NCBI GenBank assembly: GCA_034436115.1
Contig: DAOTVY010000039.1
Location: 1 to 22,443 of the forward strand
DNA length: 22,443 bases
Direction: 5' to 3'
Source: Chloroflexia bacterium
GTDB taxonomy: Bacteria; Chloroflexota; Chloroflexia; DTKN01
Of the stretch, positions 3,615 through 7,410 are shown piece after piece. Position numbers and translations under genes: made by a program. Below the pieces are notes generated by a model. That model searched no databases. It saw only the letters and a program-made list of their open reading frames with translations, and was not told where the DNA came from. Each line of letters starts with the position of its first letter. Position 1 is the first letter of the stretch.

Positions 3615-3917
3615 ATGCGTTTCTGGAGACGCCCCCTCGATGAGGGAAAGGTACTGGTGGAGCACGGAAGGGTGCACATCATCGTCGAGCGGTGCAAAGG
3701 GTGTGGCTTCTGCGTGGAATTTTGCCCGCTGGACGTCCTGGAAACCTCGGACTCGTTCAACAGCAAGGGGTACCACCCTCCGGTGATCGTGCGCCCGGAA
3801 GCGTGTGTGCGCTGTGGGCTGTGTGAGATCATCTGCCCAGAGTTTGCGGTGTACGTGTTGCGCGACGGGGAACGGCCAGCCCAGGTTCGCCGCAACGAAA
3901 CCCTGCACACGCCTTGA
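3615..3917 (+). CDS. 2x[4Fe-4S] ferredoxin-type protein (100 aa)
   Basis: Two CxxCxxCxxxCP motifs are present (CKGCGFCVEFCP and CVRCGLCEIICP). ATG at 3615 with the SD GGGGGAA. It lies 41 nt after sucD. Confidence 0.8.
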   Translation: MRFWRRPLDEGKVLVEHGRVHIIVERCKGCGFCVEFCPLDVLETSDSFNSKGYHPPVIVRPEACVRCGLCEIICPEFAVYVLRDGERPAQVRRNETLHTP

Positions 3918-4079
3918 CTTGGCGGCTCTTTCCTTAGGCGCAGCCGGTGTTGTCGGAAAGGGGGTGGTCGCGCTCGCGATTCGGTGCCGGTTCGCGGTGG
4001 GCCGCCGACCCGGCGCGCTGGGCTTTTCCCGCACCTCGCGCGGGATCGCCGGTGGCCGGGGGCACGAAAGGAGGAGGGC

Positions 4080-5237
4080 ATGCCGGGAAAGGTTGCCATC
4101 GTAGGCGTCGGGTGGTATGGCTTCCGTTCCATCTCTCCGGAACTCTCCTACAAGGAGATCATGTACGAGGCTGCGGTGCGTGCCTATGCGGACGCGGGCA
4201 TCGACCCGCGTACCGACGTGGACAGCTTTGTCACGGTGGCCGAGGATTTTTCCGAGGGCACGAGCATTTTCGATGAGTATGTGCCCGATCAGCTTGGCGC
4301 GGTGTTGCGCCCAAACGTGACGATCCCTGGGGAGGGGCTACACGGCCTGATCACCGCCTACATGCAGCTTTGCACTGGCCGGTTTGACGTCGTGGTGGTC
4401 GAGGGACACTCGAAAGCGTCCAACATCCGGTACCCGGCACACATTCTTGCCTACGCGATGGACCCGGTCTACAACCGGCCCCTTCGTGTTCATCCCTGGT
4501 TTGTGGCGGGCCTGGAGATGCAGCGCTACCTGTACGAGACGGGGACTACCCTGGAGCAGTGTGCTCAGGTCGTGGTGAAGAACAAAGCCAATGCGCTCTT
4601 TAACCCACTGGCTGCCCATCCGGCCACCCTCACCGTGGACGACGTGCGCAACTCGGAACCGGTCGCTCAGCCGCTCACCCGGCTGGAAATTGCCCCCCCT
4701 GCCGATGGGTGCGTCGTGATGGTTCTTGCCTCGGAGGCGACCGCCCGCGCCCTTACGAAGCGACCGATCTGGATCTTGGGCGTGGGCTGGGCCAACGGTT
4801 CCTACAGCCTGGAACACCGCGACTGGGTCGAGCTAGACTACGTTCGACAAGCAGCTCAGATGGCCTACCGCACGGCCGGCATCCGTTACCCACGCGGCTC
4901 CCTGGATTTCCTCGAGGTCGACGACACGTTTGCCTACAAAGAGCTCCAGCACCTGGAAGCCATGGGGCTCTGTGGCCCCGGTGAGGCCGGCCGTCTGACT
5001 GAGGACGGCACCACCTCCCTCGAGGGCGACCTTCCCGTGAACCCCTCCGGCGGTAGCCTGGGGTGTGGCCATCTGTTGGACGCCTCTGGCCTGGCCCGAG
5101 CGCTGGAACTCGTGCTGCAGCTGCGCGAGGAGGCCGGTGCCCGACAGCTCCCGGATGTACACGTCGGAGCCGCCCTCTCCTGGCGGGGCATCCCAAGCAC
5201 CAGCGCCGCCGTGGTCATCCTCAGCAACGAGGATTGA
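4080..5237 (+). CDS. Thiolase-like protein, SCP-x/Ltp2-type, paralog 1; appears to lack the N-terminal nucleophilic Cys
   Basis: MPGKVAIVGVGWYGF... is a thiolase N-terminus. The C-terminal segment NPSGGSLGCGHLLDASG resembles the thiolase GG..G-H-P..G.SG signature. Where SCP-x thiolases carry ..AACASGG.., this protein has ..TIPGEGLHG.. ATG at 4080 with the SD GGAGGAGGG. The ORF-track start at 3984 is an RBS-less, Arg-rich extension. Confidence 0.85.
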   Translation: MPGKVAIVGVGWYGFRSISPELSYKEIMYEAAVRAYADAGIDPRTDVDSFVTVAEDFSEGTSIFDEYVPDQLGAVLRPNVTIPGEGLHGLITAYMQLCTGRFDVVVVEGHSKASNIRYPAHILAYAMDPVYNRPLRVHPWFVAGLEMQRYLYETGTTLEQCAQVVVKNKANALFNPLAAHPATLTVDDVRNSEPVAQPLTRLEIAPPADGCVVMVLASEATARALTKRPIWILGVGWANGSYSLEHRDWVELDYVRQAAQMAYRTAGIRYPRGSLDFLEVDDTFAYKELQHLEAMGLCGPGEAGRLTEDGTTSLEGDLPVNPSGGSLGCGHLLDASGLARALELVLQLREEAGARQLPDVHVGAALSWRGIPSTSAAVVILSNED

Positions 5238-5250
5238 AAGGAGGAAGGCG

Positions 5251-6417
5251 ATGAGAATGCGTCGCGTTGCCCTGGTCGGCGCGGGGATGACCCGGTTCGT
5301 GCGACGGGCCCTCGAGACCGCGGACGAACTGTCGTGGCAGGCCAGCAAGATGGCGCTCGATTCCTGCGGCTTGACGCTGGAGGACATCGATGCCGTGGCC
5401 TTTGGTACGGCGCCGGATGCCTTCGACGGCGTGCACATGAACGGCGAATACTGCGCTCCGGGCTGCGGTGCTTTCGGTAAACCGTTCATCCGCTGCTACG
5501 TCGGCGGAGGTACCGGTGTGATGGCCGTGATCCACGGCTGGTATCACGTGGCGAGCGGCCTCTTTGACACTTGCCTGGTCGTGTGCGAGGAAAAGATGTC
5601 CTCCTGCCAGCCGCACCCGCAGGGGGCTTTCCTGACCATCTTTGACCACACGCTTGAGCGGCCGCTCGGGCCGAACCTGCTGTGGATCTTTGCCATGGAA
5701 ATGAATGCCTATATGTCGCGCTACGGGCTCAGCAAGCGCGATATCGCCCTGGTCACGGTGAAGAACCGGGCGAACGCCAAAGATCACCCATGCGCCCTCC
5801 TCGGAGAGGAGATCACCGTCGAGGAAGTGCTAAACTCCGAGGTCATGGCCTGGCCGGTGCAACGGCTCGACGTCAGCCCGATCTCCGACGGCGCGGTAGC
5901 GGTTGTCTTGGCTGCGGAGCCGGTCGCCCACCGCGTGACCGAAAGGCCCGTGTGGATCGAAGGGGTCGGCTGGAGCCTGGAGACAGCGTATTGGACGAAC
6001 CGAGACCTTTCCTATCCGTTGCAGGTCGAGCAGGCCGCGCGTATGGCCTACGAGATGGCGGGGATCACCGAGCCGCGCAAGCAGATCCACATCGTCGAAC
6101 CGTACGACCCGTTCGACTATAAGGAGCTGCATCACCTGGAAGGGTTGCTCCTGGCGGACAAGGGCAAGGCCCCGGAGATGACCGCGCTGGGCATCACTCG
6201 CCGGGACGGGGACCTCCCCGTTTGTCCCTCCGGAGGGCTTCTCGGGGTAGGCAACCCGATCGCTGCGGCCGGCCTGATGAAGGTCGCCGAGATCTTCTGG
6301 CAGCTCCGCGGGGAGGCCGGGGCACGTCAGGTGCCCGGGAACCCGAAGCGCGGGCTGGCGCAGGCCTGGGGAGACCTCATGCAGGTCGGCACCGTGGTCA
6401 TCTTGGGCGTGGCCTGA
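5251..6417 (+). CDS. Thiolase-like protein, SCP-x-type, paralog 2; Cys-containing but with Asn in place of the signature His
   Basis: MRMRRVALVGAGMTRF.. is a thiolase N-terminus. FIRCYVGGGTG...VASGLFDTCLVVCEEKM fits the SCP-x thiolase block (C.SGG ... vasG..D..Lv.G.EKM). The C-terminal CPSGGLLGVGNPIAAAGL has N where thiolases have GHP. ATG at 5251, with the SD AAGGAGGAAGG 13 nt after the paralog-1 stop. Confidence 0.85.
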   Translation: MRMRRVALVGAGMTRFVRRALETADELSWQASKMALDSCGLTLEDIDAVAFGTAPDAFDGVHMNGEYCAPGCGAFGKPFIRCYVGGGTGVMAVIHGWYHVASGLFDTCLVVCEEKMSSCQPHPQGAFLTIFDHTLERPLGPNLLWIFAMEMNAYMSRYGLSKRDIALVTVKNRANAKDHPCALLGEEITVEEVLNSEVMAWPVQRLDVSPISDGAVAVVLAAEPVAHRVTERPVWIEGVGWSLETAYWTNRDLSYPLQVEQAARMAYEMAGITEPRKQIHIVEPYDPFDYKELHHLEGLLLADKGKAPEMTALGITRRDGDLPVCPSGGLLGVGNPIAAAGLMKVAEIFWQLRGEAGARQVPGNPKRGLAQAWGDLMQVGTVVILGVA

Positions 6418-6427
6418 GGAGGCGATC

Positions 6428-6949
6428 ATGAGCGAGCATATTTCGGTCTATCCCGGAACGCCCCTGAAGGAGCGCGACTTTGCGGAAGGAAAGGTGCTAT
6501 GCGAGTGGTGGGTGCCGCGCGCGGAATACGCCTGGGACGCTGGAGTGGCAATCGGGCGCTTCTTGCGCGAGCTGCGCGCCGGACGCCTGATCGCTCGACG
6601 TTGCCCCCAATGCCGCCGTGTGCTCGTCCCTCCACGAATGGTCTGTGAACACTGCTTCTGCCCGACCAGCGATTGGGTCTACCTCCCCGGCACAGGTGCC
6701 GTGAAGACCTTTTCCATCTGCTACGTTACCTGGGACATGCAACCGCTGGAAGAACCGATCATTCCCGCCGTGATCGCGCTGGACGGTGCGTCGCCAGGCG
6801 GTGGCATCATGCACCTGTTGGGAGAGGTGTCGCCGGAGGCTGTGCGCATCGGGCTGCGGGTGGAGCCTGTGTTCCGGCCGGCTGGGGAGCGCACCGGCGC
6901 CATCACGGACATCCGCTACTTCCGGCCGATCGCGGAGGTGAACCCATGA
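6428..6949 (+). CDS. DUF35-type Zn-ribbon / OB-fold protein (thiolase-associated scaffold family), copy 1
   Basis: A rubredoxin-like pair is present (CPQC ... CEHC), followed by a beta-rich OB-like C-terminus. This is the characteristic DUF35 architecture. It lies 10 nt after thiolase paralog 2. Confidence 0.8.
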   Translation: MSEHISVYPGTPLKERDFAEGKVLCEWWVPRAEYAWDAGVAIGRFLRELRAGRLIARRCPQCRRVLVPPRMVCEHCFCPTSDWVYLPGTGAVKTFSICYVTWDMQPLEEPIIPAVIALDGASPGGGIMHLLGEVSPEAVRIGLRVEPVFRPAGERTGAITDIRYFRPIAEVNP

Positions 6950-7410
6950 GCCTGACCGAACGGCTGCAATCCCTGGAGCACGCCATCGCCTGGAAAGGGG
7001 AGATCCCGCTGCAGAGCCGTTATACCCTGGGGCTCGCGGGAGAACGGTTCTTCCGGGAGATCCGGGACCATGCCCGGTTGCTGGCGACCCATTGCCCGGC
7101 CTGCGATTGGACCTATTTGCCGCCCCGTGCCTACTGCGAACGCTGTCTGGCAGAGCTCACCGAGTGGGTCGAGATCCCTCCCTCTGGGGTCGTCTACTCC
7201 TACACCGTGCTCTACCGGGACCTGGACGAACAGCCGCTCGACCCGCCGGTGGTGGTCGCATTCGTGCGTCTGGAGGGGTGCGACGGGGGTCTGATCCACT
7301 ACCTTTTGGTGGAACCCGAGCAGGCTTATATCGGCATGCCGGTCGAGGTCATGTTCCGCGAAGAACGGAAGGGCTCGATCCAGGATATCGCCGGCTTCCG
7401 GCCGGCCTGA
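6946..7410 (+). CDS. DUF35-type Zn-ribbon / OB-fold protein, copy 2
   Basis: CPAC ... CERC Zn-ribbon followed by an OB-like region. The ATG overlaps the copy-1 stop (ATGA, 4-nt overlap). The ORF-track start at 6673 is an out-of-context extension. Confidence 0.8.
   Translation: MSLTERLQSLEHAIAWKGEIPLQSRYTLGLAGERFFREIRDHARLLATHCPACDWTYLPPRAYCERCLAELTEWVEIPPSGVVYSYTVLYRDLDEQPLDPPVVVAFVRLEGCDGGLIHYLLVEPEQAYIGMPVEVMFREERKGSIQDIAGFRPA

Follow-up and report, generated by a model that had tools for sequence, protein, structure and literature searches.

Two thiolase-fold proteins without the nucleophilic cysteine and two DUF35 proteins are encoded by a conserved four-gene module, mainly in Chloroflexota

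Proteins of the DUF35 family act as molecular staples that recruit further enzymes (bioRxiv 10.1101/2024.07.05.601840; PMC10398937), and Trf is a DUF35 protein with a non-metabolic role (PMC6996347). In the aldolases Ltp2 (YDHF) and Sal (YDCY), as in the thiolase-like protein TbSLP (YDCF), a Tyr takes the position of the His in the HDCF loop of thiolases and serves as the aldolase catalytic base, and in the steroid aldolases the beta-hydroxyl group is contacted by the backbone amide of the Gly that replaces the Cys (PMC12329534). The group of DUF35-stapled thiolase-fold assemblies is expanding and covers the mevalonate thiolase/3-hydroxy-3-methylglutaryl-CoA (HMG-CoA) synthase (HMGCS) complex, the archaeal fatty-acid synthase, the thiolase BbsAB, the acyltransferase PhlACB and the steroid aldolases. 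Here, we compare with these systems a four-gene module, thl1-thl2-duf1-duf2, which occupies positions 4080-7410 of a 22,443-nt stretch of DNA from a Chloroflexia bacterium (GenBank assembly GCA_034436115.1, contig DAOTVY010000039.1, positions 1 to 22,443; G+C ~65%), hereafter the window, and which encodes two thiolase-fold proteins without the catalytic residues of thiolases together with two DUF35 proteins.

A widely conserved cassette of four genes

All four genes lie on the forward strand. A degenerate thiolase-fold subunit of the sterol carrier protein 2 (SCP2) type is encoded by thl1 (4080-5237) and, after a 13-nt gap, a second SCP2-type thiolase-fold subunit by thl2 (5251-6417); the two proteins are 36% identical, match the Pfam domains Thiolase_N and, in both cases, Thiolase_C_1, and resemble PDB sequences with E = 1e-30 to 1e-42. 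A 10-nt gap separates thl2 from duf1 (6428-6949), which overlaps duf2 (6946-7410) by an ATGA start/stop junction. The products of duf1 and duf2 are 41% identical and consist of zf-ChsH2 and OB_ChsH2_C domains, that is, a Cys4 zinc ribbon and an OB fold, the ribbon cysteines being 99-100% conserved in duf1 (Cys59/62/73/76) and 100% conserved in duf2 (Cys50/53/64/67). Both match ChsH2(DUF35), Shy(DUF35), the archaeal DUF35 protein of the thiolase/HMGCS complex and SSO2064 (PDB matches of duf1: 3irb, 6ok1_B, 9myr_B and 6esq_E). A preliminary description of the locus had each thiolase followed by its own DUF35 partner; the order is in fact not alternating, both thiolase-fold genes preceding both DUF35 genes.

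The distribution of the module was assessed by scanning one genome per GTDB species with conserved thl2 peptides; the best 80 loci were taken with 10-kb flanks, and their gene content was determined by tblastn with eight window proteins. At least 591 species genomes contained a relative. Most of the best 80 loci belong to Anaerolineae or other Chloroflexota, and a few are labelled WOR-3, Actinomycetes, Symbiobacterium, Deltaproteobacteria or Armatimonadota. Among these loci, the order thl1-thl2-duf1-duf2 is kept wherever the contig has room, while the three genes sucC, orfX and sucD, which stand upstream of the module in the window, were found within 10 kb of it in none (0/80). A Pfam census of 143 same-strand open reading frames (ORFs) up to 2.6 kb upstream likewise contained no SucCD domain. 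These loci show the module to be an autonomous, widely conserved cassette, mainly of Chloroflexota.

One additional piece of evidence on how the four products are related was provided by a natural 731-aa fusion of thl2, duf1 and duf2 (P0122; cluster of 27), whose parts are 60%, 46% and ~30% identical to the window proteins. Because the gene order is invariant, the fusion is recurrent and the DUF35 proteins match the partners in solved complexes, we regard it as almost certain that the four products assemble into a single heteromeric complex of thiolase-fold and DUF35 subunits whose substrates are CoA esters; to this extent, the preliminary proposal of such a complex is supported by the sequence data.

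In several relatives, insertions of ~1 kb were observed inside the module, with the gene order unchanged (positions 11153-12449 of locus L090 and 12349-13643 of L087; also L008, L016, L023, L026, L028, L035, L050 and L060). Inserts that separate thl1 from thl2 are toxin-antitoxin-like cassettes (Rv0078B/DUF6036/PDDEXK_3), and those that separate thl2 from duf1 consist of asparaginase_2 together with PsiE.

Active-site residues and candidate chemistry

A key question is whether the products of thl1 and thl2 are thiolases at all. The term "SCP-x thiolase-like" used in the preliminary description holds for the fold: the SCP2-type thiolase fold is recognizable in both proteins. An AlphaFold2 (AF2) model of thl2 built from 36 sequences, all at least 79% identical, had a predicted local distance difference test (pLDDT) value of 34, and one built after the addition of thl1 homologs had a value of 87. 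The thl2 model matches SCP2-type thiolases, BbsB, archaeal thiolases, TbSLP, Sal and Ltp2 with template-modelling (TM) scores of 0.81-0.91, a range in which thiolases and aldolases are not separable, and its best fold match is the uncharacterised thiolase-like protein ST0096.

The catalytic residues of thiolases, however, are absent from both proteins. In thl2, VGGGTG (Gly86) is aligned to the xAACASG motif that carries the nucleophilic Cys of solved thiolases, EPYDPF (Tyr285, Pro287) to ELHDCF at the HDCF loop, and GVGNPI (Asn335) to SKGHPL at the GHP His. In thl1, the nucleophile loop has a 3-residue deletion, VDDTF replaces HDCF, and the His at the GHP position is not conserved. No conserved Cys was found at the nucleophile position of either protein across 76-82 orthologs. 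Thus all three marks of a true thiolase, the nucleophilic Cys, the HDCF loop and the GHP His, are missing, and the Pfam domain HMG_CoA_synt is absent from both paralogs. Judged by these residues and domains, neither thl1 nor thl2 is a thiolase or an HMG-CoA synthase. The idea that one paralog is an HMGCS was rejected, since the HMG_CoA_synt domain is lacking and both carry Thiolase_C_1.

By far the best NCBIfam match of thl1 is NF004722/PRK06066, just under its cut-off (463.5 bits versus 516), and thl2 exceeds the cut-off of NF004721/PRK06065 (622.7 bits versus 455); both models are named only "thiolase domain-containing protein", with no functional name. Many public records call proteins of the thl1 and thl2 types "acetyl-CoA acetyltransferase", which the active-site residues contradict. 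Against NF053628 (BbsB) the two paralogs score 121 and 136 bits, the cut-off being 750, and the score against NF053627 (BbsA) is 18 bits versus 250. Membership in BbsAB was rejected on these equivalog scores and on the missing Cys. The two reactions that had been considered for the locus, a BbsAB-like thiolysis and a condensation of the thiolase/HMGCS type, are not supported, as the two paralogs lack the nucleophilic Cys.

Could the module still encode a genuine beta-ketothiolase, in which Cys325 or Cys39 of thl2, or a residue of thl1 or of a DUF35 protein, serves as an unconventional nucleophile or base in butyrate or acetoacetate metabolism? We consider this very unlikely. The closest solved sequences are true thiolases, Cys325 and Cys39 are 95% conserved, and the neighbourhood of the module in relatives is thiolase-like (short-chain acyl-CoA dehydrogenase (ACAD), 3-hydroxybutyryl-CoA dehydrogenase and CoA-transferase A/B); however, some orthologs have Ser, Thr or Ala at these two positions, which lie outside the nucleophile loop, and thl2 also lacks the His of the HDCF and GHP motifs. 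No thiolase is known to work without the N-beta3/N-alpha3 Cys.

The loss of the Cys extends beyond the module itself. In an exhaustive representative search, the family formed one tight cluster (at least 56% identical), from which the next relatives drop to 43% or less. Many of these are also Cys-less and are either thl2-like (TGGxTG / ELYxxF / NPIGA) or thl1-like (xDGxx, with the same loop deletion); one Cys-less next relative comes from a Lokiarchaeia metagenome-assembled genome (MAG). Since such relatives occur in both classes, paired Cys-less thiolase-fold proteins are an old and widespread theme.

The four subunits are not equally constrained. Among 74-82 orthologs, columns that are at least 95% identical make up 52% of thl2 (82 sequences), 22% of thl1, 21% of duf1 and 14% of duf2, and in the loci labelled Actinomycetes, thl1 goes down to 43-49% identity while thl2 is still 75-77% identical. 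Gly86 and Tyr285 of thl2 are both at least 95% conserved, and the conserved polar residues of the former active site comprise Y285, D286, H294, H295, N335, E113, E114, K115 and H122. Because the constraint is far stronger on thl2, and thl1 diverges while thl2 stays, thl2 is probably the functional core and thl1 a degenerate partner. This pattern bears on the possibility that the assembly is not an enzyme but an acyl-CoA-binding, carrier, scaffolding or regulatory assembly that docks, for example, a dehydrogenase or a CoA-transferase, comparable to DUF35 in the Sulfolobus fatty-acid-synthase assembly. Such a role would fit the loss of all canonical catalytic residues from both subunits, the recruitment of further enzymes by DUF35 staples and the precedent of Trf, but we regard it as improbable, given that thl2, including its former active-site polar residues, is far more conserved than the other three subunits, as is typical of a working active site, and that, where a scaffolding partner is known, as with PhlA, some other subunit is the best conserved.

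The reading that we prefer, although our confidence in it stays slightly below an even chance, is that the module encodes a heterotetrameric DUF35-stapled C-C lyase that acts on short acyl-CoAs without a covalent intermediate. The products of thl1 and thl2 would form a pseudo-symmetric heterodimer, each face of which would be stapled by its own DUF35 protein, giving an alpha-beta-gamma-delta version of Ltp2-ChsH2(DUF35) and Sal-Shy(DUF35). The catalytic subunit would be thl2, working with no acyl-enzyme intermediate: Tyr285 of YDPF would act as a general base on the beta-hydroxyl, and the Gly86 backbone together with Asn335 would polarise the substrate and the thioester, while thl1 would be a degenerate partner that shapes the pocket. 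The reaction would be the retro-aldol cleavage of a short 3-hydroxyacyl-CoA to a carbonyl compound and acetyl- or propionyl-CoA, or the reverse aldol addition. The features of Ltp2 and Sal that point to this chemistry are the Gly/Tyr pair, present in thl2 (Gly86, Tyr285) and absent from thl1 (VDDTF), and the obligate zinc-ribbon partner, two DUF35 genes with 99-100% conserved Cys4 always adjoining the thiolase-fold genes.

Several observations weigh against the aldolase assignment. The second aldolase residue is missing, as Pro287 stands at the position of Cys304 in Sal and His296 in Ltp2, and the equivalence of Asn335 to Tyr344 of Ltp2 and Gln352 of Sal is inferred from alignment offsets. The sequence scores of thl2 are 147 bits with the P. 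furiosus thiolase and 131 bits with BbsB versus 74 bits with Sal (9myr_A) and 55 bits with Ltp2 (6ok1_A); because thl2 is thus closer in sequence to true thiolases, its Gly/Tyr pattern would represent a convergent, independent repurposing. Unlike in the steroid systems, a MaoC or crotonase hydratase is not a recurrent neighbour in the surveyed loci. The commonest neighbours are housekeeping genes, namely tatC (24-29 loci), nusB, asp23, fabG and fabD, so that the genomic context is weakly informative. Finally, the very high conservation fits central metabolism, but no aldolase step of this type is known there.

The remaining neighbours in relatives are moderately informative and point to short-chain acyl-CoA metabolism. 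A butyryl/acryloyl-CoA-dehydrogenase-like short-chain ACAD occurs near the module in 18-22 loci and an acyl-CoA lyase of the CitE/HpcH type in 8-9; two-subunit GctAB-like CoA-transferases recur and overlap duf2 in loci L087-L089, and MM_CoA_mutase lies directly upstream in 3 loci. At L041 (2906-13105; labelled Deltaproteobacteria), the module is flanked by a split methylmalonyl-CoA-type mutase (559 + 135 aa) on one side and by MeaB on the other, and genes for a thioesterase, a 3-hydroxybutyryl-CoA dehydrogenase, a TetR regulator, an ACAD and a corrinoid adenosyltransferase precede it on one strand. A role in fatty-acid synthesis, suggested by fabD-fabG in 22-24 loci, was rejected, as asp23, nusB and tatAC intervene, which indicates housekeeping synteny rather than an operon.

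The mutase-linked loci bring in the main alternative, a thiolase-fold decarboxylase that would make acetyl-CoA from malonyl-CoA or propionyl-CoA from methylmalonyl-CoA by means of an enolate-stabilising pocket, with no beta-hydroxyl chemistry. Its model is TbSLP, a Cys-less protein with the YDCF motif for which malonyl-CoA decarboxylase activity has been measured and a crystal structure with malonyl-CoA obtained (PDB 5ab7), although this activity is weak and its physiological role disputed (PMC12329534). A decarboxylase of this kind could sit in a succinate-to-propionate route composed of SucCD or a CoA-transferase, a mutase and the decarboxylase, and SucCD in the window and CoA-transferases elsewhere would supply the succinyl-CoA. 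The E. coli sbm-argK-ygfG-ygfH operon has an arrangement that resembles this route. The linkage, however, is sparse (mutase in ~3 of ~63 loci, SucCD in 2 closely related species), no epimerase was seen nearby, and the invariant Tyr285 would have no obvious role, so that we judge the decarboxylase to be an unlikely, if still serious, competitor of the aldolase.

A protein of ~440 aa without a family match is encoded directly 5' of thl1 in at least 14 relatives (for example, at 4544-5869 of L019, where it is a 441-aa member of cluster C9, at 7464-8759 of L005 and at 7600-8916 of L090), and no such gene is present in the window. The protein shows only weak similarity to cyclic 2,3-diphosphoglycerate synthetase and CobW-type P-loop proteins and gives no functional lead.

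The upstream sucCD block and the rest of the window

Another important question is whether the module belongs to the genes that precede it in the window. These are, all on the forward strand, sucC (865-2016), the beta subunit of ADP-forming succinate-CoA ligase (NF001913, 521.6 bits versus a cut-off of 370; ATP-grasp_2 and Ligase_CoA domains); orfX (2010-2711), a conserved hypothetical protein of 233 aa with a coding-like codon-position GC; sucD (2692-3573), the alpha subunit of the ligase (TTG start; NF004230, 458 bits versus 336); and fdx (3615-3917), a 2x[4Fe-4S] ferredoxin. Upstream of sucC lies a sigma-70-like promoter (759-787, forward strand; TTGACA-17-TACAAT, 11/12), the sole such match within 500-7600, which we assign to the sucCD unit and not to the module. 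A perfect 15-bp inverted repeat at 7415-7458, terminator-like but without a T-run, follows duf2 between the convergent duf2 and GAF-PP2C genes and folds with -43.6 kcal/mol (z = -2.85). Gene starts were set by inspection of start codons and Shine-Dalgarno sites, good examples of which were found at eight co-directional ORFs.

The preliminary description had read these features as one tightly packed operon of eight genes. The promoter, the hairpin and all of the ORFs between them were recovered; Pfam recognizes the two thiolase-fold proteins, the two DUF35 proteins and the 2x[4Fe-4S] ferredoxin; and the junctions given at the time, namely the 7-nt overlap of sucC and orfX, the 20-nt overlap of orfX and sucD and the three close junctions within the module, are correct. 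Tight packing does not extend to fdx, however, which is flanked by gaps of 41 nt on its upstream side and of 162 nt before thl1. Because the eight-gene arrangement was recovered in contigs of four independent samples, the locus is not an assembly chimera.

The junction between the sucCD/fdx block and the module is common only to the contigs of this species and to a sister locus, L097, with a 96% identical thl2. Loci L007 and L099, in which thl2 is 91-92% identical, are without it; L099 (92%) keeps the downstream synteny of GAF-PP2C phosphatase, STAS/anti-sigma kinase and Band_7, again without sucCD. In the MAG PO_10, the module (L007) and sucC-orfX-sucD-korDABC (L092) occupy separate contigs. 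A survey of relatives had been named beforehand as the test that could refute the sucCD linkage, and the linkage proved not to be conserved; a functional coupling to SucCD is accordingly not supported, the linkage being present in none of the 80 other loci and shared only with the sister. The position of the module beside sucCD and the ferredoxin is a local, recent rearrangement and not a shared pathway.

Relatives of the upstream block, located via orfX homologs, indicate where it came from. Loci L092-L095 contain sucC-orfX-sucD-fdx followed by POR_N, TPP_enzyme_C and POR genes, that is, succinyl-CoA synthetase together with a four-subunit 2-oxoacid:ferredoxin oxidoreductase (sucC-orfX-sucD-korDABC). 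Over aa 1-91, the ferredoxin of the window shares 82% identity with the one that stands ahead of korA/korB/korC in L092 and L094 (fdx/kor region at 8276-11407 and 10546-13014, respectively), and its homolog in L074 (57% identity), 4 kb from the module, is also encoded directly ahead of kor genes. The best NCBIfam match of fdx is OGOR_delta, the delta subunit of 2-oxoglutarate:ferredoxin oxidoreductase (70 bits, under the cut-off of 125). Homology to the korD-korA region of relatives stops at ~3887, no korA, korB or korC was found anywhere in the window, and korABC are missing after korD both in this species and in the sister locus; the window ferredoxin retains all eight cluster cysteines. Because relatives encode it as the delta subunit of sucC-orfX-sucD-korDABC, with the module elsewhere, the ferredoxin is assigned to the 2-oxoacid:ferredoxin oxidoreductase and is, by its homology, probably an orphaned KorD that belongs with sucCD and not with the thiolase-like complex. 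A role as the redox partner of that complex, proposed earlier, was rejected for the same reason.

Thus, sucC-orfX-sucD-fdx forms a unit of its own, left over from a sucCD-korDABC operon and set upstream of the module by a recent rearrangement, and the 162-nt gap (3918-4079, forward strand) is the rearrangement junction. This gap may carry the module's own putative promoter; no consensus promoter or terminator was detected in it, its fold is no better than that of shuffled sequences (z = 0.16), and an Rfam search of the whole window gave zero matches. The alternative, in which the eight genes form a single operon for either a BbsAB-like release of succinyl-CoA to SucCD or an archaeal thiolase/HMGCS-like condensation, with the ferredoxin providing a redox step, is consistent with co-directional genes between one promoter-like site and one hairpin, with the reality of the arrangement in four samples and a sister species, and with BbsB and an archaeal thiolase being among the closest solved relatives. 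Considering that both paralogs lack the nucleophilic Cys and the HMG_CoA_synt domain, that the BbsB and BbsA scores are far under their cut-offs, that sucCD is absent from the 80 other loci and that the ferredoxin is a KorD in relatives, we give this alternative hardly any credence.

The product of orfX has no match in Pfam, NCBIfam or PDB. Its family is narrow (35 homolog clusters) and occurs in the same position, wedged between sucC and sucD, in L092, L094, L095 and L097; within this Chloroflexia lineage, the protein may assist succinyl-CoA synthetase as an accessory factor. The family has an invariant 10-residue core and an HExxH-like motif that is not invariant.

The flanks of the eight genes can be described briefly. 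A DUF6812 protein (217-762) is encoded directly 5' of the sucC promoter and has the same position in L097. On the reverse strand, 7465-11863 encode a partner-switching pair. Its first protein (1186 aa) combines three GAF domains with a SpoIIE/PP2C phosphatase domain, and the next is a fusion of an anti-sigma-kinase-like HATPase_c_2 domain with STAS; the pair and the module also stand in synteny in L009, L097 and L099. Further downstream, also on the reverse strand, 15733-18918 contain a 1061-aa ORF without a Pfam match, which appears as a 1043-aa gene in the annotation of the source contig.

Comparison with characterised systems

The steroid aldolases are the systems on which our proposal is modelled. 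The retro-aldolase Ltp2-ChsH2(DUF35) of Thermomonospora curvata (PDB 6OK1) shares with the module a Cys-less SCP2-type fold in which Gly replaces the Cys and Tyr replaces the HDCF His (YDHF versus YDPF in thl2), and an obligate DUF35 zinc-ribbon/OB partner, which flanks the Ltp2 dimer. In contrast, two copies of Ltp2 form a homodimer, and the two DUF35 domains of that system are identical and fused to a MaoC hydratase, whereas the module has two distinct thiolase-fold subunits and two distinct free-standing DUF35 proteins; Tyr344 and His296 of Ltp2 are unmatched in thl2 (Asn335, by alignment offsets, and Pro287); and identity of thl2 to Ltp2 is 23% (55 bits), the module being found in Chloroflexota, not in steroid degraders, and with no steroid-catabolic context. 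The bile-acid aldolase Sal-Shy(DUF35) of Comamonas testosteroni (PDB 9MYR) and Atf1-ChsH4 of M. neoaurum also combine a Cys-less fold and its YDxx catalytic Tyr with DUF35, ChsH4 being free-standing like the products of duf1 and duf2, and the amide side chain of Gln352 in Sal resembles Asn335, a match again inferred from alignment offsets. Sal differs in its need for Cys304 of YDCY, which is Pro in thl2, in being a homodimer and in its steroid substrate and operon context.

Systems that pair two thiolase-superfamily subunits, or a thiolase with DUF35, resemble the module in architecture and differ from it in their catalytic residues. The archaeal thiolase/HMGCS/DUF35 complex likewise joins two such subunits by a DUF35 protein, is operon-encoded and shows DUF35 similarity, and the archaeal thiolase is among the best structural matches of the thl2 model (TM 0.90-0.91); both of its enzymes, however, have a catalytic Cys, there is one DUF35 type, and the second subunit has an HMGCS fold, while neither paralog of the module has the traits of an HMG-CoA synthase subunit with catalytic Cys and Glu. 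The benzoylsuccinyl-CoA thiolase BbsAB (PDB 7PXP), composed of a DUF35 protein (BbsA) and an SCP2-type thiolase (BbsB), is among the closest solved relatives (118-131 bits), but BbsB, whose aligned motif contains a Cys (SACSAGAMAV), is a true thiolase, the complex is alpha2-beta2, and no bbs genes were found near the module. The acyltransferases PhlACB and MucABC (PDB 5M3K, 9VBO) contain two thiolase-superfamily subunits, one of them catalytic, and a DUF35 staple (PhlB); they differ in Cys88 of PhlC, in the similarity of PhlA to HMGCS and beta-ketoacyl synthase III (KAS III), in having one DUF35 type, in their dodecameric structure and in serving secondary metabolism.

The protein that thl1 and thl2 match best in fold and sequence is ST0096 of Sulfolobus tokodaii (PDB 4YZO). 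Like TbSLP (PDB 5AB4-7), it is a Cys-less SCP2-type thiolase-like protein, with Ser at the nucleophile position of ST0096 and the motif YDCF in TbSLP. ST0096 differs in keeping HD and GHP (ELHDMAT, KGHPIG); the structures of both show one protein alone, neither a heteromer nor a dual-DUF35 partner has been described for them, and their functions are disputed or unassigned. Among actinobacterial proteins, Ltp3 and Ltp4 might be a comparable pair.

A broader claim, that the module specifies an obligate alpha-beta-gamma-delta heterotetramer with a single site devoid of thiolase residues, performing aldol or decarboxylative C-C chemistry with no covalent intermediate in the central short-chain acyl-CoA metabolism of Chloroflexota and a few other phyla, is possible, although we hold it to be rather doubtful; if true, this would be chemistry that no characterised enzyme family performs in these organisms and a new functional class beside thiolases, HMGCS and steroid aldolases. 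The presumed catalytic subunit thl2 stays 73-91% identical across lineages labelled as different phyla, and metabolic reconstructions of Chloroflexota that count these proteins as thiolases are probably wrong. Once its substrate is identified, a missing part of acyl-CoA metabolism in a major uncultivated phylum would be supplied, and biocatalysis could gain a small-substrate aldolase.

No description of the four-gene module was found in the literature searched. By its sequences, it is of the DUF35-stapled thiolase-fold kind and has some, though not all, of the features of the Ltp2 and Sal aldolases. Its composition, two different Cys-less thiolase-fold proteins with two different free-standing DUF35 proteins, differs from that of every characterised DUF35-stapled member.

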